A program made the position numbers and the translations under genes. Positions 127 through 26,485 of a stretch of DNA of 26,709 nt are shown piece after piece. The notes beneath the pieces were generated by a model. That model ran no database searches. It saw only the letters and a list, made by a program, of their open reading frames with translations, and was not told the origin of the DNA. The stretch is from a candidate division WOR-3 bacterium (lineage in GTDB: Bacteria > Hydrothermota > Hydrothermia > JBDRYB01), in assembly GCA_039803205.1 (NCBI GenBank), contig JBDRYB010000026.1:1-26709 (forward strand). Reading direction: 5' to 3'. Each line of letters starts with the position of its first letter. Position 1 is the stretch's first letter.

Positions 127-276
127 AATTTTTCTCCTTTCCCGGCCCTTCCTTCTTGGGGCCGGGATTATATTTTCATCCCTCAGGGCCTCCCTGGGCC
201 ACTACGGCCCCAAGGGTTTGAGAGCTTTGCCTTGCAGGATAAGGGTTTCAGAGGGGAGGGAAGTGTGAGATCTCAG
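1..276 (-). mobile_element. End of an IS4-like insertion sequence, running off the left edge
   Basis: Near-identical to 15542-15809; similarity stops exactly at ...GAGATCTCAG (276). The end reads CTGAGATCTCACAC on the minus strand, a CTGA-starting terminus as in IS4-family elements. Confidence 0.75.
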
Positions 277-288
277 GAACGCGGGGGG

Positions 289-318
289 TTGATCTGCTGT
301 CATCCTTTCTATTATAAT
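289..318 (+). promoter_or_regulatory. Sigma70-like promoter for the hydrogenase operon
   Basis: TTGATC-N18-TATAAT about 95 nt upstream of ATG 414. Confidence 0.55.
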
Positions 319-413
319 TTACACTCTGTTTAGAGAAACGGAAGGTGCGAGTAGACAGTAGTAATTGAAAGCTGTGAGTAAGACAACTTTAAAACACAAA
401 AGGCAGGTGCAAT

Positions 414-830
414 ATGGCCATGGATGAAGAGCTCGAAGGCATAGAGGGGATTGGGACAGTTCGCAGAATAGACGCTGTGCTTACCAAGCTTCACTTGAGT
501 GTTCCTGAGCTGGAAGGCTTTGGATTGGTGAGCGCTGAGGGGTTGCCAATTCACCTTTCCATACCAATGGAATGGGAATCAACCGGCATGGGGGAAGACT
601 ATGTTTGTGCGGTGGTCTCAGGATTGGTTGGAATAGCCGAGACGAGCGGAGTAAGGTTCCAGAAGAAGGGATTTGAGAGGGTCACAGTCAAGTTCACGGA
701 TTCCTACTTTGCGGCGGTGAAGGTCAACGATAACTGCTACCTCTTCGTTATAGCATCTGACAAGGTAAAGCTGGGCATGCTTCATGTAAGCATGGATGAG
801 GCGGCCAAATCTTTGGCCCCTTATGTCTAG
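414..830 (+). CDS. Roadblock/LC7 (MglB-like) domain protein
   Basis: 138 aa; VPELEGFGLVSAEGLPI and V.ASDKVKLGML match the Roadblock/LC7 pattern; RBS AGGCAGGTG. Confidence 0.85.
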   Translation: MAMDEELEGIEGIGTVRRIDAVLTKLHLSVPELEGFGLVSAEGLPIHLSIPMEWESTGMGEDYVCAVVSGLVGIAETSGVRFQKKGFERVTVKFTDSYFAAVKVNDNCYLFVIASDKVKLGMLHVSMDEAAKSLAPYV

Positions 831-858
831 AACACCCGAACAGGCAAAGGAGTAAAAG

Positions 859-1341
859 ATGTCTCCAAAGGACGAGGAGAGAAGGGAGGTTGCCGCGCTC
901 ATGCGGATACTGGCCTCTCTCAACATCCAAGAGGAAATCCTGGGCAAGGCCACCATAGGCATAATGTATCAGACAGGGAAGACCGTTGGCCTGGTTGAGG
1001 GAGAAAAGCTAGACAAAGCTGATGGAGTGGCTTCAGCTCTAGAGGTTATCAGAAAAAGCCCATGGGGTGAGGTTTGGACTATAGAGCTCTGGCGCGACAA
1101 GGGCCAGGAGGCCGATACCTTCGTGAAAGACGAAAAGGAACATGCTTGGTTAGTGTGGCGCGATTGCCCCATAAGACAGGTCTGTCTAACCGAAGGAGTC
1201 AAGCAGGATGGTGCGATCTGCAAGCTGTCTTACGGGATATTCGCGGGCATAATCTCCAAGGTCATGGACAAAAAAGCGGACATCAAACCAGAATCCCCGG
1301 GACCCAATGCGTGTAAGAAGGTCCTCATAATAAGGGGTTAG
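859..1341 (+). CDS. V4R-like (4-vinyl reductase / ligand-binding) domain protein
   Basis: IMYQTGKTVG, DCPIRQVC, ICKLSYGIFAGII, GPNAC follow the V4R Cys pattern; RBS AAGGAG. Confidence 0.75.
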   Translation: MSPKDEERREVAALMRILASLNIQEEILGKATIGIMYQTGKTVGLVEGEKLDKADGVASALEVIRKSPWGEVWTIELWRDKGQEADTFVKDEKEHAWLVWRDCPIRQVCLTEGVKQDGAICKLSYGIFAGIISKVMDKKADIKPESPGPNACKKVLIIRG

Positions 1342-1345
1342 AGGC

Positions 1346-2254
1346 ATGAAGCTGGCCACGGTTTCCTTGACATCCTGCACGGGTTGCCACGTGGCAATGC
1401 TCCATTTGGGCCAGGATTTCGCGAACATCCTGAAGGGATCAGATGTTGTCTATTCCAGCGTGCTGGCTGACTTTAAAAAAATCCCCAAGTGTGATGTGGC
1501 ACTCCTGGAGGGAGCGGTCCGGAACGAGAAGGATGTCTCCTTGCTCAAAGAGGTTCGCGAGAACTCAAAGATCCTCGTGACAATAGGAACATGTTCCTCA
1601 TACGGTGGGGTCGCTGGACTTGGTAATACTGCTCCAGCTAGTGAACTCTACGAGACTGCTTACAAAGACCAGGCCAAACGTTACCCAGCGCTTCTTCCTA
1701 GGCTTTTGCCAGTTGACTCCTTTGTTGAGGTGGACTACTATGTTACTGGCTGTCCACCCCCACCGAAGGTTCTCAGTGGGTTCTTCAACGATCTCCTCTC
1801 AGGCAAGAAACCCAAGGTCAACGATCTTCCCGTGTGCGCTGACTGTAAGAGAAGGGTGAAAGGTAGCTTTGCCAGAAACATGAGGCATCTTCATCAGGCA
1901 CAGCCTGAGGATGGGGTATGCCTTCTTCAGCAAGGCTATATTTGTCTAGGTTCGGTCACGAGGGCTGGTTGTGAGGCACTATGTCCCACCGCAGGACATC
2001 CCTGCAATGGGTGCCGAGGCCCAACCCACAAGATCCTTCTCAATCCCTCCCACGGTATATACATAGACATTGTTAGACGCAGAAGTCATTATCTCGGAAT
2101 AACCGAGGAACAGTCCAGACAGGAGATAGACGAGTTTACGGACAGGAGTCTCTACTGGTTTACCCTCGCCTCTCCGTTCCTCCGAAGGAGAAACATGGAG
2201 AGAGTGTCATCACTTATACACAGGGTCAACGTGGATAAAGAAGGAAGCGAATGA
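1346..2254 (+). CDS. [NiFe]-hydrogenase small subunit, group 3 (MvhG-like)
   Basis: SCTGCH, EGAVRN, GTCSSYGG, GCPP, VCADC and CLLQQGYICLGSVTRAGCEALCPTAGHPCNGCRGP Fe-S motifs; no Tat signal. Confidence 0.9.
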   Translation: MKLATVSLTSCTGCHVAMLHLGQDFANILKGSDVVYSSVLADFKKIPKCDVALLEGAVRNEKDVSLLKEVRENSKILVTIGTCSSYGGVAGLGNTAPASELYETAYKDQAKRYPALLPRLLPVDSFVEVDYYVTGCPPPPKVLSGFFNDLLSGKKPKVNDLPVCADCKRRVKGSFARNMRHLHQAQPEDGVCLLQQGYICLGSVTRAGCEALCPTAGHPCNGCRGPTHKILLNPSHGIYIDIVRRRSHYLGITEEQSRQEIDEFTDRSLYWFTLASPFLRRRNMERVSSLIHRVNVDKEGSE

Positions 2255-3666
2255 TGCCAGATGAGATAGTCATATCACCCGTTACGAGGATAGAGGGCCA
2301 CGCGGAGATAACCGTTGAGCTGGGCGATGATGGCAGGGCAAAGGGGGCTAGGTTCCATGTTCACAACTTCAGGGGATTCGAGAGGTTCCTTGAAGGGATG
2401 CCGGCTGACGACCTTCCCCAACTTACCTGCAGGATATGTGGGATATGTTATTCCGCCCACGGCCTAGCGTCTGTGAAGGCCATTGAATCAGCCTGGGGTA
2501 TCAAACCATCCCCAGAAGCCAGAAAGGTCAGGGAGCTGATATTCTTCGGTCAATACATAGAATCCCACGCGCTCTCCCTGGCAGTTCTCAGCCTCCCGGA
2601 TTTCATTTACCCGGGCCAGGGGCCTGAGAAACGAAACATAGTTAATCTACTGAAGACCCATGAAGATGTAGCGAAGAAACTCATTGATCTCAGGCAATCC
2701 GGCTCAATGATCACCAGGGTGGTTGGGGGGCGCCCAGTTCATCCTGTCAACTTCGTTCCCGGTGGAGTTGTTCGCGTGCCCACCCCTGAGGAAAGGAAGG
2801 AGCTCCTTAAGGGTCTTGAGGGTAAGGATGCTGTGTTGGTTGGCTTGTGGAACATCCTCAAGGAGGTTCTGCTCAAGAATCCGGAGTTTATGAGTCTCGG
2901 CGCAACCGAGACCCACTATCTTGCCATGAATGACGAGGGCAAAATTGCTTTTTACGATGGTCATCTGAGCATTATGACCCCTGATGGCAAGATAAAAGAA
3001 ACTTTCCCACCCGAGGATTACTTCAAGCATGTAGCCGAGGAGGAGCACGCCTTTAGTTACATGAAGTTCCCTGTTCTGGTAACTGGGGAGAAGTTCAGAG
3101 TTGGACCCCTTGCCAGGGTGAATATCGCAAAACTCTGCGGAACGCCAAAGGCTGATGAGATACTATCGGAGGCCAGAGAGATCGTTGGTTTTCCAACCAA
3201 CACCACCATGGCCTATCATGTAGCAAGGCTCATAGAAACGGTGTATTCCTGGGAAAAAGCGGTTGAGCTCCTGAACGACGATGATGTTTCCTCACCAAAG
3301 GCCCTCTTCGCAGGGATTCCTGCCAAAGCCGGAAGGGGCATCGGTATAGTTGAGGCCCCCAGAGGTGTTTTGGTTCACCAGTACGAGTTCGGTGACACGG
3401 GAAGACTTATCAAGGCCAACTTCGTGGTTGCCACCCAGCACAACAACCACGCTATAAACGATGGCCTTTCTGCAACAGCGCGAGAACTCATCACATCTCC
3501 AAAAGTTCCGGAGGAGATCCTGAACAGGCTTGAGATGATAGCCAGGGCATACGACCCGTGTCTCGCTTGTGCCACTCACGCTATTGGCGTGCGTCCGTTT
3601 ACAATAGAGCTCGTTGGCCCTGATGGCAAAACTATAAGGAGGTGGGAAAGAAATGGCCGGGTTTAA
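2251..3666 (+). CDS. [NiFe]-hydrogenase large subunit, group 3 (MvhA/HoxH-like)
   Basis: TRIEGH, RGFERF, RICGIC (L1), EAPRG, RAYDPCLACATH (L2) followed by a C-terminal extension; ATGA overlap with the small subunit gene. Confidence 0.93.
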   Translation: MMPDEIVISPVTRIEGHAEITVELGDDGRAKGARFHVHNFRGFERFLEGMPADDLPQLTCRICGICYSAHGLASVKAIESAWGIKPSPEARKVRELIFFGQYIESHALSLAVLSLPDFIYPGQGPEKRNIVNLLKTHEDVAKKLIDLRQSGSMITRVVGGRPVHPVNFVPGGVVRVPTPEERKELLKGLEGKDAVLVGLWNILKEVLLKNPEFMSLGATETHYLAMNDEGKIAFYDGHLSIMTPDGKIKETFPPEDYFKHVAEEEHAFSYMKFPVLVTGEKFRVGPLARVNIAKLCGTPKADEILSEAREIVGFPTNTTMAYHVARLIETVYSWEKAVELLNDDDVSSPKALFAGIPAKAGRGIGIVEAPRGVLVHQYEFGDTGRLIKANFVVATQHNNHAINDGLSATARELITSPKVPEEILNRLEMIARAYDPCLACATHAIGVRPFTIELVGPDGKTIRRWERNGRV

Positions 3667-3934
3667 AATAACCAGAGACAAGGACAGGTGTGTCATATGC
3701 GGGGAATGCATCCGAGTTTGTCCGCAGTCCGGGGGGGACAAACAGTTCCCGGTAATAAAGGAGCATCCCACCAAAGAGGAACCACCTGAGGTTGTGAACC
3801 CGGACAACTGCATCCAGTGTCTGAGGTGTCTGGATACATGCAGAGCCTCAGCAATAAGCTTTGAGGGTTATCGCGAAGTCAAACAGGTTCTGCTTGATCC
3901 ATACATGGTCAGGGAGGCTGATAAGATCGTTTAG
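3653..3934 (+). CDS. 2x[4Fe-4S] dicluster ferredoxin
   Basis: CVICGECIRVCP and CIQCLRCLDTC motifs; overlaps the end of the large subunit gene. Confidence 0.9.
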   Translation: MAGFKITRDKDRCVICGECIRVCPQSGGDKQFPVIKEHPTKEEPPEVVNPDNCIQCLRCLDTCRASAISFEGYREVKQVLLDPYMVREADKIV

Positions 3935-4513: not shown

Positions 4514-5926
4514 TTATATAACCAACAGGTCCATGAACTCGTGGAAGGGCATCTCATCAAGCGCCCTGGGGTCCTTAAAGAGCGCTATCATCTCTTCAAC
4601 CCGATGGTGCGGGAAGCGGCTATCCATGTTTGAGCGGAACTTCTCGTAAAGGAGGGGAGTTGCTTCGTGCCTCCTGCGTTTGTGGCCTATGGGATACTCA
4701 ACCTCTAGCTTACCGGTGCTTGTCCCGTCCTTGAACCTTACTTCAACCGCATTTGCTATTGAGCGCTTATTAGGATCAAGGTAATCCGCTGAGTATCTCG
4801 GATCCTCAACCACCTTCATCTTGCTTCTGAGCCGATCTATTCTGGGGTCCGAAGCGACCCGGTCAGAATAGGAATCAGCAGTTACCTCACCGTATATGAG
4901 GCCTATTGCCACCATGTATTGGATGCAGTGATCCCGGTCAGCTGGGTTGTGAAGAGGGCCTTCTTTGTCTATTATCCTTTTCGCGGATTCCTGGGTTGTT
5001 ATGATGATCTCCTCTATCTCATCAAGTCTGTCTCTTACGCTAGGATGAAGTCTCAGGGCCGCCTCAAGCGCTGTCTGCCCGTGGAACTCAGCCGGAAAAG
5101 AGACCTTGAAAAGCACATTCTCCATTACATAGCTTCCCAAGGGCCGAGCGAGGACTATCTCCTTGCCATGGAACCACACGTCCTGAAACCCCCAGCCAGG
5201 AGCGGAAAGGGCCTTTGGATAACCCATCTCCCCTGCCATAGCCCAATATGCCAGCTGGACCCCGCGGCTCGTCGCATCCCCAGCGGCCCATGACTTGCGG
5301 GAACCTGTTTGTGGTGCGTGCCTGTAAGCCCTAAGGGTTGCCTCAAGGAATGCATTTGACACAGCGCTTATTACCTGTTCCCTCGTGCACCCGAGCATGG
5401 CCGCACTGACCGCGGCCGAAGCCACCTTCACGAAAAGGACATGGTCAATCCCCACCCTGTTCAGGCTATTCTCCAGGGCGAGCACCCCTTGTATCTCGTG
5501 CGCCTTTATTGCCCAAGTGAGAACATCCCTGACCCTGGCTGGCTCCCGGCCTCTTGAAACCGCCTTTTGGCTCAGGTGATCCCCCAAAGCGAGTATTGCG
5601 CCGAGGTTATCGGATGGGTGGCCCCACTCAGCTGCCAGCCATGTGTCGTTGTAATCAAGCCAGCGTATAGCTGTCCCGATGCAGAAAGCGGCCCTCACCG
5701 GATCCAGGATGAACTGGGTTCCAGGGACCCTTGAACCCAAAGGAACCACTGTCCCGTGGAGAATAGGCCCCATGAGCTTCGCGCAAGCGGGATAAGAGAG
5801 AGCGAGAACCCCGCAACCGATCGAGTCCATGAGACAGAGCCGTGCTGTATCGTATGCCTCCTTGCTGGTTATCTCAGCCCCCAAAACATAGTCCGCTATG
5901 TCCGAAAGAACCCTGTCCGGCTCCAT
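4514..5926 (-). CDS. prpD: 2-methylcitrate dehydratase (MmgE/PrpD family)
   Basis: [61 protein letters not shown]. Confidence 0.95.
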
Positions 5927-5928
5927 GG

Positions 5929-7050
5929 CTATCGCTCGCCTATGGGGATAAACTTTAGGTTTTCCGGTCCGATGTATTCTGCTCTGGGCCTTATTATCCT
6001 GTTGTTTGCCCTCTGCTCAAATATGTGCGCCGACCATCCGGATGTCCTCGCCATGACGAATATGGGCGTATACATGGGAACGGGGATCCCACACATATAG
6101 TAGAGAACCCCGCCGAAGAAGTCCACATTGGGGAAAAGCCTTTTCTCTCGCCACATGACCTCCTCAACCCTCTCGGCCTTGTTGTAGAGGCTCATATCCC
6201 CGGCCCTCTCCGAGAGTCTCTTTGCCCATGATTTCGCTATTGGATGCCGGGGATCAGAGACCTTATATACCCTGTGGCCAAAGCCCATTATCTTCTCTTT
6301 TCTTGCGAGCATATCCAGGATCTGCCTCTCAGCATCGTCAGGGTCCTTGAACTTTTGAAGCATGTATACCGCGGCCTCGTTCGCGCCGCCGTGCAATGGG
6401 CCCCGAAGGGCACCTATGCCACCAGTGATGGCTGAGTAGAAATCCGAGAGGGTTGATGCGATCACCCGACAGGAGAATGTTGAGGCATTGAACTCGTGTT
6501 CAGCGTAGAGTATGAGAGTAACATCAAGGGCCTTCTCAGTGAGCGGATCCGGTTTCTCCCCTTTCAGTAGCCTCAGGAAATGCCCCGCGATACCCCTTTC
6601 GTCAGTCTCGGTTTCTATTCGCTTGCCTGAGTTGGCGAAGTGATACCAGTAAAGGAGCATTGACGGGAAAGAGGCGAGCAATCTGTTGGCTATGGAACGC
6701 TGATCCCTACCGGGCCCCTCTGGTTCCATCGTGCCCAGAGCAGAACACCCTGTCCTCAGGACATCCATGGGGTGGGCATCCCGTGGTATCTGCTCCAGAA
6801 CGGTCTTAAGGCCCTGAGGCAGGCCTCGCATCTTTCTAAGGGTAGCTTCATACTCCTCAAGCTCGGATATGTTCGGCAGCTTCCCGTAAAGGAGGAGGTA
6901 AGCCACCTCCTCAAAGCGAGCGTTCTCAGCCAGGTCCTCAACAGAGTATCCCCTGTAATGAAGGCCTTTACCCTCCTTGTCAACCGTCGCGATGGCCGTG
7001 TCACCGGCTATGACCCCTTCAAGTCCAGTTGGCTTCTTCAAAGCTTCCAT
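5929..7050 (-). CDS. prpC: 2-methylcitrate synthase
   Basis: [35 protein letters not shown] citrate-synthase motifs; located between prpB and prpD. Confidence 0.93.
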
Positions 7051-7116
7051 GGTATATAACCTCCGGTTCAGCAGTTATTATATAACGGCAAGGAACCCTC
7101 GCGCCACAATTGGCTT

Positions 7117-7992
7117 CTATCCCCTGCGAAGCAGTTCGTCCATCCTCCGTTCGTATTCGTGATACCCTATCACCTCGTATAGCTCATCCCTCGTCTGCAT
7201 GAGACCAAGGACACCCTTCTGGGTTCCGTCCTTGAGTATGGCTTCATAGACCCTTTGAGCCGCCTTCGCCATGGCCCTGAACGCTGATAGGGGATAAAGG
7301 GCTATGCTAACCCCGGCCTCGCCGAGCTCCTGAGCGGTGAAAAGAGGGGTCCTTCCGAACTCGGTTATGTTGGCCAGGATGGGAACCTCCACGGCCTCAG
7401 CTATCTTCCTGTAGTGATCCAACTCTGCAAGCGCCTCAGGGAATATCATATCAGCTCCCGCATCCCTGTAAGCAACTGCCCTTTCTATGACGCCTTCCAA
7501 GCCCTCTTTCGCAAAAGCATCGGTTCTTGCCATTATCACGAAATCAGGGTCTTGCCTCGCATCAACAGCGGCCTTTATTCGGTCCACCATCTCCTCTCTG
7601 GAGACTATCTCCTTGCCAGGCCTGTGGCCGCACCTTTTAGCGGAGACTTGATCCTCTATGTGAACGCCTGCCGCTCCTGCTTTTTCCATCTCTTTGATGG
7701 TTCTGGCTATCCCAAGAGCGTTCCCCCATCCGGTGTCCACATCAACCAAAAGAGGAAGCGAGCAGGCCGATGTTATTCTTCGGACATCCTCAAGCACATC
7801 CGATAGGTTCGTCATCCCGAGGTCAGGAAGCCCATACGAAGCTGTTGCGACTCCGGAGCCTGATAGGTAAATTGCCTTGAACCCGATCCTTTCAGCGAGT
7901 ATGGCCGCGTAGGCATTTATTGCGCCGGGGAGCTTGAGAGGCCTTTCGGACAGAAGAGCGGCTCTAAATAGTTTTCCAGGGCTTTCTCTCAT
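7117..7992 (-). CDS. prpB: Methylisocitrate lyase
   Basis: [46 protein letters not shown]. Confidence 0.96.
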
Positions 7993-10590: not shown

Positions 10591-11016
10591 TTATGGGTAA
10601 TATATGAAATTCCCTTGGGTGTGGCAGACCGCGCACGCGGGGTTGGTCGGCTGAGTCGCCATCCAGATCGTGTCCTGGCTCCGGGTTAGGCCTATCCTGT
10701 ATGGCGATGGAACCGGATCCGCTGTCCAAAAATTACCGTTGTAATCAGTAATTAATGTCTGCCTCAGAGCCCCTGCATTGTCATAAACGAGAACCTGGAC
10801 GCTCTCGGCCGGAGCTGAGCCTCCAGCGTCAGTGAACACGGTTCCACCCATGGCCCAGACATATTCCCCTGCTTCGCCTCCGGGTGTGTGGCAAGTCAGG
10901 CAATTCGCTCCTTGATTGTGGCCTGGTCCATAGCCTTCCTCAACGGGCCCGCCTCCGACACAATTCCCACTCAGAATGAAAGCAAGAATAAGCAATGCAC
11001 TTTGCGGTTTCATCAT
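10591..11016 (-). CDS. Exported diheme c-type cytochrome (possible lipoprotein) with a central beta-sandwich segment
   Basis: CLTCH and CAVCH; start moved to 11016 because ATGA overlaps the upstream stop and a hydrophobic leader MMKPQSALLILAFILSGNC follows. Confidence 0.8.
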   Translation of the reverse strand: MMKPQSALLILAFILSGNCVGGGPVEEGYGPGHNQGANCLTCHTPGGEAGEYVWAMGGTVFTDAGGSAPAESVQVLVYDNAGALRQTLITDYNGNFWTADPVPSPYRIGLTRSQDTIWMATQPTNPACAVCHTQGNFIYYP

Positions 11017-12065
11017 CGGTGAACCAACGGAGCGTTTTGCGCGGCCCAGCCCTTCGTCTCTGTGTCGTGGCAGCCAGCGTACAGGCATGTGTATTCCAGA
11101 GTCAGATACGGATTGGCAAAGGAACCAGTAGAATCAAACTGCTGCGCCAGCGAGTCCGGGTTTATGGAGAATAAATGAGACCTTACATCCCCCTCATACT
11201 GGCCTGAGGAGACCGCGGACTTAACCGCGTAGGGCATGTGGCAATCCAGGCAGCTTAGATTCTCCATGCCAGGGATTACAACCTCCTTGTCCCAATGGCA
11301 GGCCTTACAGTCGTTCTTTATTGCCAGATCAGGATTATAGTGCGCGCTCTGGTGTGGATCGTGGCAATCCGTGCAGTCAAAGAAAGCGTGTTTTGAAGCC
11401 AAGAGCTCATTATACTGCTGGTGATGCTGGATGAAACCGCCTTTTGCCGGAATGGTGTAAGGGTTACCCCTTACATGACACTCACCGCACAGCTCCTTTG
11501 ACCTGTCTATAACCATTGCCACATTCTCTGGGTCGGCCGCATGCTCGGAGCCAGGGCCGTGGCAAACCTCGCACTGAATACCCGGGAAGGCCCATGTGCC
11601 TTTTATGCCCGGAAGATTATCCTGATGCCCAGTGGGGGAGTAACCAGTGGTGTGGCATGCTCCACAATCATATGGCACCACCTTATCTGCCTCGTAATCA
11701 ACCCACTGACCCGTCTCAAAGTTATACTGGTTCTGACCTCCCTGGGTTATGATGTATCCGTCCAGGCCTATGAACCTGGCCTTCCAGGCATAACCACCTA
11801 TCACATAGGAAACATCGTTGTAAGTGAAGTGAGGCGGATTTGGCGGCAATTCTGTATAGGGATAGTCGGGTATCTGACCATTGACGACCTTCGTAAGCTT
11901 ATACGGATGGCCTGTTGTTCTGAAGGATGTGTAGATGCCCTCGTGACAGGTAGCACAAGCCTCGGAGCCTATGTACTCGGCCTTCTCGGATGCAGGAATT
12001 CTCCCACCCGTGCATCCAGCCACGGCGAAGCAGATAAACAGCTGGGTTTTTAAATAAGTCTTCAT
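11013..12065 (-). CDS. Multiheme c-type cytochrome lipoprotein (7 CxxCH + 1 CX4CH)
   Basis: CATCH, CGACH, CEVCH, CGECH, CTDCH, CKACH, CLDCH, CLYAGCH; lipobox VAGC; RBS AGGAGG. Confidence 0.9.
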   Translation of the reverse strand: MKTYLKTQLFICFAVAGCTGGRIPASEKAEYIGSEACATCHEGIYTSFRTTGHPYKLTKVVNGQIPDYPYTELPPNPPHFTYNDVSYVIGGYAWKARFIGLDGYIITQGGQNQYNFETGQWVDYEADKVVPYDCGACHTTGYSPTGHQDNLPGIKGTWAFPGIQCEVCHGPGSEHAADPENVAMVIDRSKELCGECHVRGNPYTIPAKGGFIQHHQQYNELLASKHAFFDCTDCHDPHQSAHYNPDLAIKNDCKACHWDKEVVIPGMENLSCLDCHMPYAVKSAVSSGQYEGDVRSHLFSINPDSLAQQFDSTGSFANPYLTLEYTCLYAGCHDTETKGWAAQNAPLVHR

Positions 12066-12069
12066 GATG

Positions 12070-12816
12070 TTACCTCCTTATAGCCTTAAATACAAGGTTA
12101 TTTCCGACGCACACCGTGTATGTGCCGGGGTTCTCCTCGCTCAGATCAACCAGGGCCTCGGTTTCATCCGGAGGGAGGGTTAGGACAGAGACCAGCCTGC
12201 CAGATATGTCCAAAACACGAGCAGTCCGGTACCTATGGGTCGGATTTAACCTCAAAAGGAAAACACCGGGTCGTCCGGTCGGGAAGAGTCCTTCCTCAAA
12301 GCCAATTTCGTCCTCATCCACGGCAACATTCTCGGTGGCTATCAGGAAGGTATCCAGGTTGGGCCCATCCGCGAGGCCCCAGTGAAACGCCAGGTAAAGC
12401 CTTACCTCGCCCGTGCCTGGGGGTGGTGCTGTCCAGTAGAAGGTGCCATAGGTCTGATCGTTAGCCGAAAACCGTACGCCGTTGGTTTCCACAGCCACAT
12501 TATAGGTTTGTGTGTTGGTACCTGCAGTTATCACGCCCGCGTTATTGGACCCAGTTCCTATCCGGCAAGAGCCATTGAAGTTCTTGATAGGGTTGGTGCT
12601 CGTTATGGTTATCTCATACTGCTGATTCGGAGTATAGACTGAGGGAAAACCGGTTATGGTGACCACATCAGTGCCGGACCCATGACACGAAGAAGCACAG
12701 AAACCAAGTGAACCTGGTGCACCTGAGTAGCCCTTATAGCCAGCATGGGCCTCCAACACTGCTGGCAGTCCTGCCAGCATGACGACAGAGATCATGGATA
12801 GAGAAGCTATGCGCAT
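12070..12816 (-). CDS. Secreted Reeler-like (choice-of-anchor V-like) protein with CX3CH motif and T9SS-like C-terminal domain
   Basis: Signal peptide; SGAPG...CASSCH; YTPNQQYEITI and FYWTAPPPGTGEVRLY (Reeler-like); LDISGRLV...PGTYTV tail. Confidence 0.75.
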   Translation of the reverse strand: MRIASLSMISVVMLAGLPAVLEAHAGYKGYSGAPGSLGFCASSCHGSGTDVVTITGFPSVYTPNQQYEITITSTNPIKNFNGSCRIGTGSNNAGVITAGTNTQTYNVAVETNGVRFSANDQTYGTFYWTAPPPGTGEVRLYLAFHWGLADGPNLDTFLIATENVAVDEDEIGFEEGLFPTGRPGVFLLRLNPTHRYRTARVLDISGRLVSVLTLPPDETEALVDLSEENPGTYTVCVGNNLVFKAIRR

Positions 12817-15190: not shown

Positions 15191-15809
15191 TTGAGATCCC
15201 GCATACTCTCACCCCCCAGAAACAGGTTCTGATGCAGGATAGCTCGTAAGTTCTTGGGGCACAAGAGCTTAGCGTATCCTCCTCGCAATCGTCCAAGACA
15301 CAGGAGTGCCTTGGTGAAGACGCTATACCTCCTCTCGTAGCTCGTGAGGCTGGGTATGAAGGTGGAGACAAAGGGTTCTATGGCCATACCAACGAGAATG
15401 AGGAAAGCGCAAGCAAGGAATATGGCCTTTATCATTCCTCTGAGCACATCCTTGTTCCTGGCCTTGAGATGCTCAAGTCCCTCGTATGTCCTTGAGGAAG
15501 CCCCTTTTGACCTCGGATTTTGCCTCCCACCATGCGAGGCTTGAGCGGGAATACTCAATTGCCTAGATGTGCACCTTGTCCAGGATGAGACCCTCTTTGG
15601 CCCCCATGGACTTGAGCCAGAGTTTCAGCTTGCTTGATACTTGTGGAGAAAGGAACATAATTTTTTCTCCTTTCCCGGCCCTTCCTTCTTGGGGCCGGGA
15701 TTATATTTTCATCCCTCAGGGCCTCCCTGGGCCACTACGGCCCCAAGGGTTTGAGAGCTTTGCCTTGCAGGATAAGGGTTTCAGAGGGGAGGAAAGTGTG
15801 AGATCTCAG
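15191..15809 (-). mobile_element. Internally deleted non-autonomous IS4-like element (~620 bp)
   Basis: Imperfect terminal IRs TTGAGATCCCGCA / CTGAGATCTCACA. Carries a transposase start (ATG 15658, early stop) and a transposase-like C-terminus (GLEHLKARNKDVLRGMIKAIFLAC...RRYSVF). 15542-15809 is repeated at 1-276. Confidence 0.75.
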
Positions 15810-15898: not shown

Positions 15899-17518
15899 AT
15901 GCCAAAAGCAACGACTTTGGTGGCCTCAGTCCTGGCTGTGAGTCTCTCGTGGGCTGGTTCCGCGGCTCAGCACCTCTCCAAGATGGACGAGGCCACCAGA
16001 GAAAACGCACTGATAGACCTGGAGTGGGCAGGAGCCCACACCAACGAGATGGCCAACGCTGAGTATCTCTGGAACACTGGAAGATACTCAGAGGCCATAT
16101 CCGCCATAGAAGCACTGGAAGCCGAGCTCGGAGACATGTGTCTCGGAATATCCTGGCGCAAGCCCATAGAGACCGAGAGCCCAAAATGGGGAACGGATGT
16201 TCGTGTGACCCAGTCAAGCTACGACATAAGTGACATCGAGCTTGTCAAGGCCCAAGGCAACAACAACCTATTCGTTTTAGCCATGGGGACCAGTGGCGCT
16301 GATACCTGCTGGACCCTCAATATCTCAACAAACGGAGGAAGCTCTTGGTCAGAAACATACAGATGGAACCTCGCGAATGGCTATGTATTAAAGGATGTTG
16401 ATGCGGCCGAATATCCAGGCTACATATATGTCGCGTATGCCAGCTCTTATAATGACTCAGTTTGGGTGAGGAGGTTCAACGAGACCAACGGGAGCTTTGA
16501 CAACGGGTTCGATTACAAACTCGTGATTGGCACTAACGCGGATATAAGGGAACTAAATCTTGAGCCTAATAGAATGAATTGGGATCAGCTATACTGCGCG
16601 GTCATTAACGCGAGCGGAAGCCTCCTCTATACCTACTCGACTGACGGCGGCTCTACATGGAATTCTGTTTCTACAGGCGTATCAGATGCAAGTGGGGGGC
16701 TTGATATGGACTACGGCTTTATGAGCGGCTCTCAGCACTTCTTCTGGCTCAGTTACATAAATAACGCTGGCGAGCTTTGTGCCAAGGGCCGTGCCCCCGG
16801 TATTTGGGAGGATCACTACAACATCACGGAGGACGCTCACTGGTATACCAGGATAGCCCACCACGGCGATACGATATTGATTCTCTATTCAGACGGAAGT
16901 ACAGGTGATCTTGAATACCAAGTGACCTATGACGACGGGAATAACTGGAATGGAGGGATCCTATACGATTCCACAGATGCTGGAGCGTTTGACATAACCG
17001 GCCGGGGAGGCCAGGGCTGGCAGGCCGCGTTCTGCGATTACTATGCATCTGGCCCTGAGACCATGAAATATAGGCACAGTACCTATCAGTATCCGCACAG
17101 CTGGGACAATGTCCAGAGCTTTGGGGATCACGATGCTTTCTTCAATTACCACAGCTCCATTGACTACCTCGGTGCCTCGGGCGCCTACGGTGTTGCCTAC
17201 ATAGACGATAACTTTGATGTCTGGTTTGACAGGTTGGATTGGGGCGATGTTGCTGAGTCCGCTCCAAAGCCCCTACCCATGGAATTCAAGGCCCTACCAG
17301 GCCCTGGAAAGACAACCCTCTCATTTGTCCTGTCTCAGGAAGGCTTTGCTAGTCTGAGGATATACGATGTCCGCGGCGCTCTGGTCAGAGACCTCTCCGG
17401 CAACTACAAGGAAGGCATGAACAGGGTTGAGTTCGTTCCCGATGGTTCCGGAACCTTCTTCGCTATACTGGTCGCTGGAGGCCGACAGGCAAGGACCAAG
17501 TTCGTGACAGTGAAGTAG
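15899..17518 (+). CDS. Secreted BNR/Asp-box (beta-propeller-like) protein with T9SS-like C-terminal domain, copy 1
   Basis: Signal peptide; STNGGSSWS, STDGGSTWN, TYDDGNNWN Asp-boxes; IYDVRGALVR tail; RBS AAGGAG. Confidence 0.85.
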   Translation: MPKATTLVASVLAVSLSWAGSAAQHLSKMDEATRENALIDLEWAGAHTNEMANAEYLWNTGRYSEAISAIEALEAELGDMCLGISWRKPIETESPKWGTDVRVTQSSYDISDIELVKAQGNNNLFVLAMGTSGADTCWTLNISTNGGSSWSETYRWNLANGYVLKDVDAAEYPGYIYVAYASSYNDSVWVRRFNETNGSFDNGFDYKLVIGTNADIRELNLEPNRMNWDQLYCAVINASGSLLYTYSTDGGSTWNSVSTGVSDASGGLDMDYGFMSGSQHFFWLSYINNAGELCAKGRAPGIWEDHYNITEDAHWYTRIAHHGDTILILYSDGSTGDLEYQVTYDDGNNWNGGILYDSTDAGAFDITGRGGQGWQAAFCDYYASGPETMKYRHSTYQYPHSWDNVQSFGDHDAFFNYHSSIDYLGASGAYGVAYIDDNFDVWFDRLDWGDVAESAPKPLPMEFKALPGPGKTTLSFVLSQEGFASLRIYDVRGALVRDLSGNYKEGMNRVEFVPDGSGTFFAILVAGGRQARTKFVTVK

Positions 17519-17668: not shown

Positions 17669-19291
17669 ATGCCAAAAGCAACGACTTTGGTGGTCTCAGT
17701 CCTGGCCGTGAGTCTCTCGTGGGCTGGTTCCGCGGCTCAGCACCTTTCCAAGATGGACGAGGCCACCAGAGAAAACGCACTGATAGGCCTGGAGTGGGCA
17801 GGAGCCCACACCAACGAGATGACCAACGCTGAGTATCTCTGGAACACTGGAAGATACTCAGAGGCCATATCCGCCATAGAAGCACTGGAAGCCGAGCTCG
17901 GAGACATGTGTCTCGGAATATCCTGGCGCAAGCCCATAGAGACCGAGAGCCCAAAATGGGGAACGGATGTTCGGGTGACCCAGTCAAGCTACGACATAAG
18001 TGACATTGAGCTTGTCAAGGCCCAAGGCAACAACAACCTCTTTGTTGTAGCGATGGGTTCATACGGTGCTGATACCTGCTGGACCCTCAATATCTCAACA
18101 AACGGAGGAAGCTCTTGGTCAGAAACATACAGATGGAACCTCGCGAATGGCTATGAATTGTATGATGTTGATGCGGCTGAATACCCTGGTTATATATATG
18201 TCGTTTACGCCAGCTCCTACAACGATTCGGTATGGACGAGGAGGTTCAGCGAGACCAACGGGAGCCATGATGACGCTTTCGGTTTTAAGCTTGTAATCGG
18301 CTCAAACTCGGAGATGTGGGAGTGCAATCTTGAGCCCAATAGATACAGTTGGGATGAGCTCTACTGCGGGGTAATCAACTCTAGCCGGGCCCTTTTATAC
18401 ACTGTGTCTTTTGATGGTGGATCAAGCTGGACACCAATCTCCACAGGTGTCACGGATGCTTATGTTGGTCTTGATATGGATTACGGGTTTATGGCCGGGG
18501 CTCAGCATTATCTTTGGCTAAGTTATCTAAACGCCACTCCCAGTCTCTGCGCTAAAGCTCGTATTGGCGGTTCCTGGGAAGATCACCCCAATCTCGCACC
18601 TTCTGCCTGGGGGTATACCCGCATAGCCCAACACGGGGATACGGTATTGATTCTCTACGCGGATACCGGAAACCTCACTGATCTCAAATACAGGGTGACC
18701 TACAACGACGGAGGAGCCTGGACTTGGGGAACTGTATACGATTCTACGGATGCTGGCGCGTTTGACATAACCGGCCGGGGAGGCCAGGGCTGGCAGGCCG
18801 CGTTCTGCGATTACTATGCATCTGGCCCTGAGACCATGAAATATAGGCGAAGGACCTATCAATTCCCGCCGGATTGGGAGGCTGTCCAGAGCTTTGGGAA
18901 TCACGATGCTTTCTTCAATTACCACAGCTCCATTGACTACCTCGGTGCCTCGGGCGCCTACGGTGTTGCCTACATAGACGATAACTTTGATGTGTGGTTT
19001 GACAGGTTGGATTGGGGCGATGTTGCTGAGTCCGCTCCAAAGCCCCTACCCATGGAATTCAAGGCCCTACCAGGCCCTGGAAAGACAACCCTCTCATTTG
19101 TCCTGCCTCAGGAAGGCTTTGCTAGCCTGAGGATATACGATGTCCGCGGCGCTCTGGTCAGAGACCTCTCCGGCAACTACAAGGAAGGCATGAACAGGGT
19201 TGAGTTCGTTCCCGATGGTTCCGGAACCTTCTTCGCTATACTGGTCGCTGGAGGCCAACAGGCAAGGACCAAGTTCGTGACAGTGAAGTAG
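17669..19291 (+). CDS. Secreted BNR/Asp-box protein with T9SS-like C-terminal domain, copy 2
   Basis: Paralog of 15899-17518 with near-identical ends and a diverged middle. Confidence 0.85.
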   Translation: MPKATTLVVSVLAVSLSWAGSAAQHLSKMDEATRENALIGLEWAGAHTNEMTNAEYLWNTGRYSEAISAIEALEAELGDMCLGISWRKPIETESPKWGTDVRVTQSSYDISDIELVKAQGNNNLFVVAMGSYGADTCWTLNISTNGGSSWSETYRWNLANGYELYDVDAAEYPGYIYVVYASSYNDSVWTRRFSETNGSHDDAFGFKLVIGSNSEMWECNLEPNRYSWDELYCGVINSSRALLYTVSFDGGSSWTPISTGVTDAYVGLDMDYGFMAGAQHYLWLSYLNATPSLCAKARIGGSWEDHPNLAPSAWGYTRIAQHGDTVLILYADTGNLTDLKYRVTYNDGGAWTWGTVYDSTDAGAFDITGRGGQGWQAAFCDYYASGPETMKYRRRTYQFPPDWEAVQSFGNHDAFFNYHSSIDYLGASGAYGVAYIDDNFDVWFDRLDWGDVAESAPKPLPMEFKALPGPGKTTLSFVLPQEGFASLRIYDVRGALVRDLSGNYKEGMNRVEFVPDGSGTFFAILVAGGQQARTKFVTVK

Positions 19292-24515: not shown

Positions 24516-25925
24516 TTACCTCAGAATGATCTTCTCGGTTCTGGCTTTGTTTTTGGCCTCAAGTCTCAGGAAGTAGGTTCCGGCTGAGAAGGAGCTGGTT
24601 GGGATGGAAAGATCGTAGTAGCCAGCGGGTTTCTCCTCGGAGAAGATCGTTTGAACAACCCGGCCAGAGACATCGTATATCTTAAGGGAGACGAGGCCTT
24701 CGTCTTCAAGGGGGATGCCGAACTTGAGCTTGAGGGCACCCCTAGTAGGGTTCGGGGCGACCGACAGAAAGAGGCGAGGTTTTGGCTCATGCTGGGACTC
24801 AGGTATCCCTATGTCCGGGTTCGTGGTCGCGTAATAGACATCTCTTTCGTTGTTAAACCAGACTACATGTAAAAAGCCCAGGCTATCCGTGGCCATGTGA
24901 AGGTAAGCACCACCCAAATAATCTATAATCTCGTTGTGCCAGGCAGTATCTGATGGGTTCTTGTAATAGTGAGAAATGCCACCCTTGGTAGAAATGAAGT
25001 GGACCACTCCGTCTCTATCAACTACTGGGTTACTCCAGATCCCCAAAGAGGCCGTAAAAATCGTATCTACATGCCACTGGCCAAGAGTATCCCTGAACAA
25101 ATACCTGAGCTGATCAGGCTCAAAAGACGGACTTGTCCTGAAAAGGGCGTGCGGTTGATTTTTATAATCCATGCATAGAGAAGCGCTCGCCCATGGAAGG
25201 GGATCCTCCGTTACCGAATCAGCGGCTACCCATTCCCAGGAGCCGCTTTCGTTGCTTCCGTGGAGGAAATACCCCCATTGCAGGGAGACGATGTGAATGT
25301 TGCTGTTGCAGTCCCTGTCCGCGTCAATATAAAACGCCTCACTGCCGTAATAAATGGGATCCGGCTGTGGTATCCACTCGCCCTGCCAGGCGCCGCCTTC
25401 AAATCGGTATATCCCAAACTTGGTGAAGCCAAGCGTGTCGCTGATCGTGTCAGAGGTCACTATCATGGGTATACCCAGGAAATCAAGGAAAGCGCCCTGG
25501 GGCCAGTTTATCAGGCCGATATACGGATTAGCAAGGCTGTCCACGAGGCTCGGTAAGGTATCCCAGGTGTCTCCCCAGCCGTGGAAAAACTTGTATTTTG
25601 GAGGATAGGGCGGACAATCAACGCTGCCTATCCACAGGCTGTCCGAGGTGTCCATGAAACAGGCCTGAGACCCACCCTCCTCTGGAGCAACCCAGGGGGG
25701 TAGGGTGTCTATCCTCCAAGAGCCTTCTTGCCATTCAATAACCACATTCCGGTGGCCGTAAGACCCTCCCTCCACAGGATAACTATCCAGATAAAGGATC
25801 ACAGGATCACATTGGCTATCAAGGACAAGACCCTGGACAGTACCTAAGGGGGTGGTATCTACATAAACATGTTCCACATGCCAGACCCACTGGCTCAGAA
25901 ACACAAGCATCAGAAGCCCGTTCAT
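24516..25925 (-). CDS. Secreted beta-propeller-like protein with T9SS type A-like C-terminal domain; paralog of 23147-24433
   Basis: RBS AGGAGG; VDRDGVVHF and TDSLGFLHV blades; PNPTRG...IYDVSGRVV...GTYFLRL tail. Confidence 0.82.
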   Translation of the reverse strand: MNGLLMLVFLSQWVWHVEHVYVDTTPLGTVQGLVLDSQCDPVILYLDSYPVEGGSYGHRNVVIEWQEGSWRIDTLPPWVAPEEGGSQACFMDTSDSLWIGSVDCPPYPPKYKFFHGWGDTWDTLPSLVDSLANPYIGLINWPQGAFLDFLGIPMIVTSDTISDTLGFTKFGIYRFEGGAWQGEWIPQPDPIYYGSEAFYIDADRDCNSNIHIVSLQWGYFLHGSNESGSWEWVAADSVTEDPLPWASASLCMDYKNQPHALFRTSPSFEPDQLRYLFRDTLGQWHVDTIFTASLGIWSNPVVDRDGVVHFISTKGGISHYYKNPSDTAWHNEIIDYLGGAYLHMATDSLGFLHVVWFNNERDVYYATTNPDIGIPESQHEPKPRLFLSVAPNPTRGALKLKFGIPLEDEGLVSLKIYDVSGRVVQTIFSEEKPAGYYDLSIPTSSFSAGTYFLRLEAKNKARTEKIILR

Positions 25926-25945
25926 GGTTTACCTCCTGAAGAAAG

Positions 25946-25992
25946 ACAAGGGGGCCGGCCCTTTGAGCGAAAACGGAACCGGCCCCTTTTGT
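25946..25992. terminator. GC-rich intergenic hairpin
   Basis: ACAAGGGGGCCGG...CCGGCCCCTTTTGT stem. Confidence 0.55.
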
Positions 25993-25999
25993 TCATGCT

Positions 26000-26485
26000 T
26001 TACCTTACCACGACCTTCTCGGTCAAGGCCTTTGTCCGGGTTTCTATTTTCAAGAAGCAGGTTCCGGAGGAGAAGGAATTAACCGGAATGGCGAGATCAT
26101 AGTAGCCAGCTTCCTTTTTCTCAGAGAACACCGTTTGAACTGTTCGGCCAGAGACATCATAAACCTTCAGGGAGACGAGGCCTTCGTCTTCAAGGGGGAT
26201 GCCGTATTTGATTTTGAGATCCTCCTTCACAGGATTGCTTGAGGCCAGGCTCATAATGATGTAGCTCGGGTTCCATGTTGGCAGTTGGGGATGGCCTGGG
26301 ATGGAGATATGACCCATTTTATCCAGTTTTGGGGCTATGACATCTTATCCGTACTGGTTTCCGAACGAGAAGTCAGAGGTCTTTAGGCTGAGGTTCACGA
26401 TGAGGGTGTCCTGGGCCATGAGCTCAGGAGCCAGGAGTCCGAAGGCCACGCATGTGGCCCATACCAACCATCTTCTCTCTCTCAT
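26000..26485 (-). pseudogene. Collapsed T9SS-cargo pseudogene: signal peptide, C25 (gingipain) propeptide-like fragment and C-terminal domain, with an in-frame TAA
   Basis: RBS AGGAGG and ATG 26485 are in frame with stop 26000: MRERRWLVWATCVAFGLLAPELMAQDTLIV...NQYG*DVIAP...PGHPQLP, then directly the CTD. TAA at 26345-26347. Confidence 0.65.

Follow-up and report, generated by a model that had tools for sequence, protein, structure and literature searches.

A compact operon of five genes at positions 414-3934 (+ strand) of a contig from a candidate division WOR-3 bacterium combines a group 3 [NiFe]-hydrogenase with a ferredoxin, a protein of the V4R fold and a Roadblock/LC7 protein. The window analysed here is the entire contig (G000:C26; 26,709 bases) and belongs to a 2.3-Mb, 96%-complete genome, the DNA of which is present in hot-spring metagenome runs; those listed are four DNA runs of one study, two of which may be the source, and none of RNA. 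Our results suggest that the operon encodes a cytoplasmic, Hdr-independent, Mvh-like hydrogenase that is locked to the V4R-fold protein and, less tightly, to the Roadblock protein, and that may feed a pathway of H2 or redox signalling. We would put the probability of this reading, which is built from sequence comparisons, at about 45%.

The five open reading frames (ORFs), all on the + strand, have intergenic gaps of 28, 4, -4 and -14 nucleotides (nt) and a purine-rich stretch ahead of each start. They encode a Roadblock/LC7 protein of 138 amino acids (aa; 414-830), a V4R/TRAPPC3(Bet3)-fold protein of 160 aa (859-1341), an MvhG-like small subunit of 302 aa (1346-2254), an MvhA-like large subunit of 471 aa (2251-3666) and a 2x[4Fe-4S] ferredoxin-like subunit of 93 aa (3653-3934). 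A promoter-like motif, TTGATC-18 nt-TATAAT (289-318, + strand), lies ~95 nt before the first gene; it was picked up in a consensus scan (10/12 matches) and amounts to no more than a consensus match. The neighbour on the upstream side starts at base 126 and runs off the contig on the opposite strand, and the downstream genes (prpD, citrate synthase and a lyase of the phosphoenolpyruvate (PEP)-mutase family) are convergent on the - strand; hence, the five genes form a self-contained operon. The original prediction for this stretch, made from its sequence alone, had described five co-oriented genes with gaps of 28 nt or less, or overlaps, behind one promoter-like motif, and this description holds. 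Its statement that the window has no mvhD, hdr, hoxFU or frhB gene is also confirmed, as a Pfam search of 28 ORFs of the window found no protein of the MvhD/FlpD, Hdr, HoxFU or FrhB type.

Conservation and phylogeny of the module

The same arrangement of genes recurs in 33 related loci and is, therefore, not due to chance. These loci were found with an alignment of the V4R-protein family as query; 10 are from genomes (34 pattern matches, with L011 and L012 being two contigs of one assembly) and 23 from metagenomes (160 pattern matches). Because several metagenome rows nearly duplicate genome loci (L028-L031 those at L014 and L016), the rows are not independent. The V4R gene is directly before the small-subunit gene in 10/10 genome loci, all of which have the large subunit, and in 21/23 metagenome loci; in L019 and L039 the contig ends within ~100 nt of the V4R gene. 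A Roadblock gene is present in nine of the ten genome loci (not L017) and in 18 of the 23 metagenome loci, being downstream in L018 and not found in L019-L022 and L040. The homologues have thus kept the neighbours that were expected of them, with V4R retained in 31/33 loci and Roadblock in 27/33. Ferredoxin is encoded in 9/10 genome loci, the contig of L013 ending before this point could be reached. The genes mvhD, hdrA, hdrB and hdrC occur in 0/10 genome loci and 0/23 metagenome loci, such that the partners of a group 3c enzyme (MvhD and HdrABC) are found in none of the 33 loci. Similarly, no gene for a flavoprotein, NAD(P)-binding protein or Hdr-like acceptor was detected in these loci, including in a Pfam search of their flanks. 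Ordinary Mvh-type loci of the same phylum present another picture: among 15 such loci in a context survey of 20 regions, 10 had mvhD and/or hdrA, five had hydrogenase genes only and none had a Roadblock or V4R gene.

Carriers of the module include a metagenome-assembled genome with a Deltaproteobacteria title (which resolves to Myxococcota), Thermodesulfobacteriota, Dissulfurispiraceae and Nitrospiraceae (both Nitrospirota), Anaerolineae (Chloroflexota) and the phylum of the window itself. Within that phylum, a search for hydrogenases at E up to 1e-30 was positive in 167 of 272 genomes. Besides G000, only G099, G240 and G241 have the window-type hydrogenase (45-46% identity, E ~1e-130), and the two genomes of the same genus have only the type found on contig C12 (see below). 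The closest relatives of the window lie outside the phylum (87%, 70% and 60% identity; one of the related loci, L008, carries a Deltaproteobacteria title). This observation and the patchy distribution suggest that the module was gained by horizontal acquisition. In G240, the whole module and its flanks are present, with identical scores, on contigs C4 and C15 (L011 and L012), either through a genuine duplication or as an artefact of assembly.

Phylogenetic analysis places the V4R-linked large subunits in a separate, well-supported clade. A FastTree phylogeny was built from 157 large subunits (the window, 15 V4R-linked, 12 Hdr-linked, 5 from hydrogenase-only loci, 118 database matches, 2 distant sequences and 4 named outgroups taken from plasmid records). 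The window, 14 of the 15 V4R-linked loci and 48 database matches formed one clade with a support of 99; its sister group (support 81) contained the Hdr-linked bacterial clade, the methanogen MvhA clade and HoxH-like sequences. The single exception was L040, whose branch is very long and adjoins a 3b-like sequence; it was left out of a second tree as unplaceable. This second tree (IQ-TREE with LG+G4, quick search, 64 rows) gave a support of 99 for the clade and 86 for the sister group. Nesting among Hdr-linked MvhA proteins, which would have contradicted the original prediction, is found in neither tree. Approximately unbiased (AU) tests rejected neither a grouping of the clade with all MvhA (p 0.106) nor one with the bacterial Hdr-linked clade (p 0.315); the clade may, therefore, rank as a new subgroup or as a deep branch of group 3c. 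The L040 locus (241-3238) is itself an aberrant relative, in which a V4R-like fragment is combined with a small subunit, a short large subunit of 401 aa and a ferredoxin of 83 aa.

The hydrogenase subunits have the features expected of a working group 3 enzyme, and database matches confirm the predicted MvhG-like, MvhA-like and ferredoxin identities. [NiFe] large subunits are marked by an N-terminal RxCGxCxxxH motif and a C-terminal DPCxxCxxH motif, together with the catalytic Arg/Glu. In the window protein and its clade, R61, C63, G64, C66 and H70, E15, the E368-A-P-R371-G372 stretch and D435, P436, C437, C440 and H443 are invariant among 24 large subunits, such that both Ni-binding Cys pairs and the catalytic Arg (E-A-P-R-G) are present. 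The best NCBIfam match is VhuA (2e-104; 349 bits against a cut-off of 800 bits), the Pfam match is PF00374 (2.4e-36) and the closest solved structures are 7t2r_D (1.7e-112), part of an electron-bifurcating NiFe-HydABCSL complex, and 5odc_F (MvhA; 8.6e-97). Recognised regulatory hydrogenases have a large subunit without a C-terminal extension. The window protein has 28 residues after H443, an extension that is kept in the 24 clade members, and its best family matches are to group 3, both of which argue against membership of the regulatory groups 2b/2c. The small subunit matches VhuG of NCBIfam (3.9e-64, under the family cut-off) and aligns over residues 2-231 with MvhG (5odc_E, 1e-58). It has the proximal-cluster CxxC motif right at the N-terminus and no signal peptide, as in group 3, and a conserved C-terminal region of ~70 aa. 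Its 12 invariant cysteines (C11, 14, 83, 136, 164, 167, 192, 200, 209, 213, 220 and 223) fit three predicted [4Fe-4S] clusters. The ferredoxin (Pfam Fer4_7, 1.6e-11) has two 4Fe-4S motifs with eight invariant cysteines and an unusual 29-residue spacer between the motifs; the start of its gene overlaps the large-subunit gene by 14 nt, indicating translational coupling. Judged by these residues, the operon encodes an intact, maturable, cytoplasmic Mvh-like [NiFe]-hydrogenase with its own ferredoxin.

The same genome has a second hydrogenase, of the standard kind, on contig C12 (L007, 4172-11953), where a canonical hdrC-hdrB-hdrA-mvhD-mvhG-mvhA operon holds the only FlpD/MvhD gene of the genome. 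The MvhA protein of this operon is 35% identical to the window large subunit. Thus, an mvhD-hdrABC set does exist elsewhere in the genome, as the original prediction had allowed, but it sits beside its own hydrogenase on another contig. The HdrA protein of C12 is 1127 aa long and has an extra part resembling the pyridine-nucleotide-disulfide oxidoreductases GltD/NfnB. Maturation genes are found as HycI-HypA-HypB on C6 and HypD on C8.

The V4R-fold and Roadblock proteins and their signalling neighbours

The 160-aa protein had been described as V4R-like, which is right for the fold but not for membership of the Pfam family. It had no Pfam or NCBIfam family match except for a weak match to WhiB, and PF02830 matched neither this protein at E up to 10 nor any other protein of the genome. 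Distant members of the family do have sub-threshold PF02830 matches (6e-6 to 1e-2). An AlphaFold (AF2) model of the protein, with a mean predicted local distance difference test score (pLDDT) of 86 and a predicted template modelling (TM) score (pTM) of 0.81, was matched by Foldseek to TRAPPC3/Bet3 and to the V4R sensor domains of PoxR, MopR and DmpR (6aq3, 5fru, 6iy8, 5kbe and 2bjn; E 3e-5 to 3e-4, probability 1.00, TM 0.55-0.62). On the strength of this model we place the protein in the V4R/Bet3 (TRAPPC3) fold superfamily. In PoxR, MopR and DmpR, this fold serves in ligand sensing. The likeness between the V4R and TRAPPC3 folds is also supported by the available part of one study (PMC10933270), which describes a four-Cys Zn site in Thor-TRAPPC3 and ligand cavities within this fold.

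The V4R-protein family comprises 24 clusters at 90% identity, across which four cysteines (C103, C109, C121 and C152) are invariant. In the predicted model these residues are placed at a strand end, in two helices and in the last strand, and together they could form a metal site. A weak WhiB-like CPxxxxC match (E 0.039 to WhiB4 in the PDB and 0.023 in Pfam) is compatible with an Fe-S cluster in place of Zn; a search of PDB sequences with the family profile found nothing beyond this WhiB4 match and chance matches. Among 1.84 billion representatives, 81 match the family with E values of 1e-3 or below and 40 with values of 1e-10 or below. One of these 81 representatives, P0162 (231 aa), combines in a single chain a 2x[4Fe-4S] ferredoxin of the module's kind and a V4R-like domain. 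Identity is 40% across 68 residues in the ferredoxin portion, which has the same long spacer, and 26% across 157 residues (E 7e-14) in the V4R portion, which keeps three of the four cysteines. This fusion suggests that the ferredoxin and the V4R protein may work in contact. Several relatives of ~300 aa have two V4R-like stretches each. A complex prediction for the small subunit, large subunit, ferredoxin and V4R protein was not used for or against binding, as a control scored nearly as high.

The Roadblock protein was identified as predicted, with a match to Robl_LC7 (PF03259) at E 2.3e-8 and 34.1 bits against a cut-off of 23; its best solved relative is 7f8m (Robl_LC7; 2.4e-9). The protein is divergent for its family: it is extended at the N-terminus and has an insert of five residues, and its identity is 54% to the L008 counterpart and 19-30% to the remaining 15 aligned rows. 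A cognate small GTPase gene beside Roadblock is absent from the window and present in L010, L011 and L077.

The module is recurrently embedded among genes for PATAN, Roadblock, small-GTPase, kinase and PilZ proteins. All three window-type loci of the same phylum have the order receiver-PATAN, Roadblock, V4R, small subunit, large subunit, ferredoxin and small GTPase. In two of them (L010 and L011) the set is headed by a PAS histidine kinase gene, and in one, L010, HycI comes directly after the GTPase. Elsewhere, a receiver-PATAN(-TPR) gene precedes Roadblock in L036, L037 and L038. In L036 there is a cNMP-binding/FHA/PilZ protein upstream, and the genes after the ferredoxin encode another Roadblock protein, a 143-aa protein of unknown kind, HycI and a PilZ protein. 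In L018, PATAN proteins flank the module on both sides, and downstream there are two genes for Roadblock. A kinase-like ATPase is encoded upstream on the opposite strand in L014 and L016, together with a receiver in L016, and a PAS-GAF-DUF835 protein upstream in L021. The flanks of L013 and L017 contain housekeeping or mobile genes only. The GTPase and kinase genes that the original prediction proposed to look for do occur in related loci, along with PATAN response regulators, but not in the window.

The GTPase linked to the hydrogenase (165 aa) is most similar to Arl3/Arf (1e-7), with MglA at 3e-5. In G000, the sole Roadblock-GTPase pair is found on contig C3 (L041, 585-7914, - strand) in a cluster with a PAS histidine kinase, a receiver-DUF4388 (PATAN) protein, an unknown protein, an FHA/TPR protein, a PP2C phosphatase and a Ser/Thr kinase; a third Roadblock gene is on C4, beside an anti-sigma-type kinase and a SpoIIE phosphatase. 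Orthologues of the C3 GTPase are kept elsewhere in each of G099, G240 and G241 (46-53%), and the hydrogenase-linked GTPase is, therefore, an extra paralogue. This also speaks against the hydrogenase-linked cluster being simply the genome's main Roadblock-GTPase cluster after an insertion, and we reject that idea. A phage terminase-like gene is found beside the C3 cluster on the other strand.

Possible signalling, metabolic and assembly roles

From the conserved neighbourhood we infer the contacts, the direction and the output of a putative signalling route. Oxidation of H2 would load the iron-sulfur chain and the ferredoxin subunit, and the ferredoxin would then pass its redox state to the V4R protein, either at its metal site or through its bound ligand. 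This protein might in turn alter its engagement of a Roadblock dimer which, as in MglB or Ragulator, could determine the state of both a small Ras-like GTPase and the PATAN response regulators that control polarity- or pilus-type outputs. Under this scheme, G000 would have a minimal five-gene input device, and its only candidate switch would be the Roadblock-GTPase-kinase-PATAN cluster on C3. A further proposal, which we hold tentatively, is that the route from a group 3 hydrogenase through ferredoxin to a Cys4 V4R protein and Roadblock, and on to GTPase and PATAN proteins, is a third kind of biological H2 sensing, by which cells might steer polarity, pili or attachment along hydrogen gradients.

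Several findings weigh against a role in signalling. The enzyme appears to be fully catalytic, and it depends on proteolytic maturation, in contrast to recognised regulatory hydrogenases. In 6/33 loci the Roadblock gene is absent or out of place, and L013, L017 and L021 have no PATAN or GTPase neighbours. In the window, no GTPase, kinase or PATAN gene adjoins the module; loss of an upstream PATAN gene at the contig end is unlikely, because the upstream neighbour begins at base 126 on the opposite strand. The closest that the genome comes to the linked GTPase is the protein on C3, with just 27.5% identity, such that there is no dedicated copy, and a dedicated ferredoxin would fit a metabolic output equally well. 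The suggestion that this is a signalling-linked, non-standard hydrogenase has, therefore, stood in part: the separate clade and the conserved V4R and Roadblock neighbours agree with it, but since the catalytic and maturation features are all intact, a role in sensing rather than metabolism is something that we infer.

It is also possible, although somewhat unlikely, that the operon serves metabolism through an output module of a new kind. The ferredoxin would then link H2 to the soluble ferredoxin pool or to another reductase, with the V4R and Roadblock proteins being structural subunits that replace MvhD as a docking platform. The intact catalytic residues and three Fe-S clusters are consistent with such a role, as are the translational coupling of the ferredoxin gene and the identity of the best solved relative of the large subunit, 7t2r_D, from an electron-bifurcating complex. 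The minimal five-gene form in the window has no signalling neighbours, and 5/15 ordinary Mvh-type loci likewise lack Hdr genes. However, no flavoprotein, NAD(P)-binding or Hdr-like acceptor gene was detected in any of the 33 loci, and in three lineages the operon itself repeatedly includes genes for PATAN, GTPase and PilZ proteins. To our knowledge, neither the Roadblock nor the V4R fold serves as a redox subunit.

The arrow could also run in reverse, with the Roadblock, GTPase and PATAN proteins positioning or switching the hydrogenase (by recruitment to a pole or gating of activity) and the V4R protein acting as an adaptor on the enzyme. The neighbourhood evidence is the same as for signalling by the enzyme, and the sequence data cannot separate the two directions. 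Accounts of MglA/MglB systems (the accessible parts of PMC3199381 and PMC9481161), in which machines are placed at cell poles, favour such an arrangement. However, the four invariant cysteines of the V4R protein and its fusion to a ferredoxin would be left unexplained, and we consider this direction unlikely. Least probable of all is that the V4R and Roadblock proteins are clade-specific chaperones of assembly or maturation, delivering metal or Fe-S clusters to the small subunit or ferredoxin within a maturation set that includes the GTPase and HycI: the GTPase gene directly before HycI in L010, the Cys4 site with its weak WhiB-like match and the position of the V4R gene directly before the small-subunit gene would fit, but HycI, HypA, HypB and HypD are already in the genome, the GTPase is Arf/MglA-like and not of the HypB type, and PATAN receivers, PAS kinases and PilZ proteins have no place in maturation. 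As the genome encodes HycI-HypA-HypB and HypD elsewhere, the linked GTPase is not needed as a substitute for HypB, and this idea was rejected.

These distinctions matter as hydrogenases are classified by their partners, and genome-based predictions of metabolism rest on that classification. By similarity, the V4R-linked enzymes would be called group 3c, Hdr-linked and electron-bifurcating, yet they are never beside Hdr genes; hence, metagenomic surveys probably mis-assign the function of this clade, which in G000 coexists with a true Hdr-linked enzyme. If the module is a sensor, anaerobes would have a route from H2 to behaviour that is distinct from the HoxBC-HoxJ pathway.

Surroundings of the operon and comparison with known systems

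The contig begins within a short reading frame (1-167, - strand) preceded by a GC-rich hairpin at 140-167. This frame recurs at 72-100% identity on C28 (at the contig end), C30, C4, C3, C34 and C27, and at 15542-15658 of the window, with full copies being 31-64 aa; the repeat and its hairpin probably caused the assembly break. The - strand genes at 4514-7992, which encode in a row prpD (MmgE/PrpD), a citrate synthase family protein and a protein of the PEP-mutase/isocitrate-lyase family, resemble an operon for the methylcitrate cycle and converge on the hydrogenase operon. Further along, 10591-12816 (- strand) encodes a protein that ends in a weak type IX secretion sorting tail, as well as two multihaem c-type cytochrome-like proteins, and more proteins with such tails are found at 24516-26317. 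Two adjoining + strand ORFs, 15899-17518 and 17669-19291 (539 and 540 aa, neither with a Pfam family), show the same shadow-ORF pattern and hence are probably tandem paralogues.

We found no account in the literature, subscription journals not being covered, of a hydrogenase with Roadblock or V4R partners. A comparable description is of a [NiFe] 'group 3e', which the available part of a preprint (bioRxiv 10.1101/2021.08.23.457424) proposes as unique to Anaerolineae and without regular neighbours. It and the V4R-linked enzymes each form a divergent group 3 clade without Hdr or the usual accessory subunits, and one of our loci, L017, is from Anaerolineae and has no Roadblock gene. As described, the two differ in that the V4R clade spans several phyla and is always accompanied by V4R; they may nonetheless prove to be one clade.

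Compared with the F420-non-reducing group 3c complex MvhAGD-HdrABC (5odc), the module has the same cytoplasmic character, Ni-binding motifs, C-terminal extension and 12-Cys, three-cluster small subunit. It differs in the absence of MvhD and Hdr from all 33 loci, with a ferredoxin, a V4R-fold protein and Roadblock present instead, and in the separate clade of its large subunit. HoxBC/HupUV with the kinase HoxJ are the regulatory, H2-sensing hydrogenases of group 2b. The idea of a hydrogenase as sensor is common to both, and a PAS histidine kinase is present in the operons of L010 and L011. In contrast to HoxBC/HupUV, the module matches group 3 families and keeps the C-terminal extension, and its putative transducers are a V4R-fold protein and Roadblock rather than a kinase bound to the small subunit.

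With the MglA/MglB-PATAN switch, the module shares Roadblock, a small Ras-like GTPase and DUF4388/PATAN receivers, the latter two in related loci and on C3. The hydrogenase-linked GTPase is, however, a shorter, Arf-like paralogue and the window Roadblock is divergent; we know of no hydrogenase or V4R protein in the MglA/MglB system. Finally, the TRAPP core (Bet3/TRAPPC3 with longin) and Ragulator of eukaryotes and Asgard archaea resemble the module in having Bet3/V4R and Roadblock folds side by side, in some loci with a GTPase. The module is bacterial and hydrogenase-linked, and the likeness is one of folds only. If the signalling route is real, it would be a prokaryotic example of TRAPP/Ragulator-type folds acting jointly on a GTPase, and such joint action of V4R and Roadblock would offer a tractable bacterial model for this fold combination of eukaryotes.

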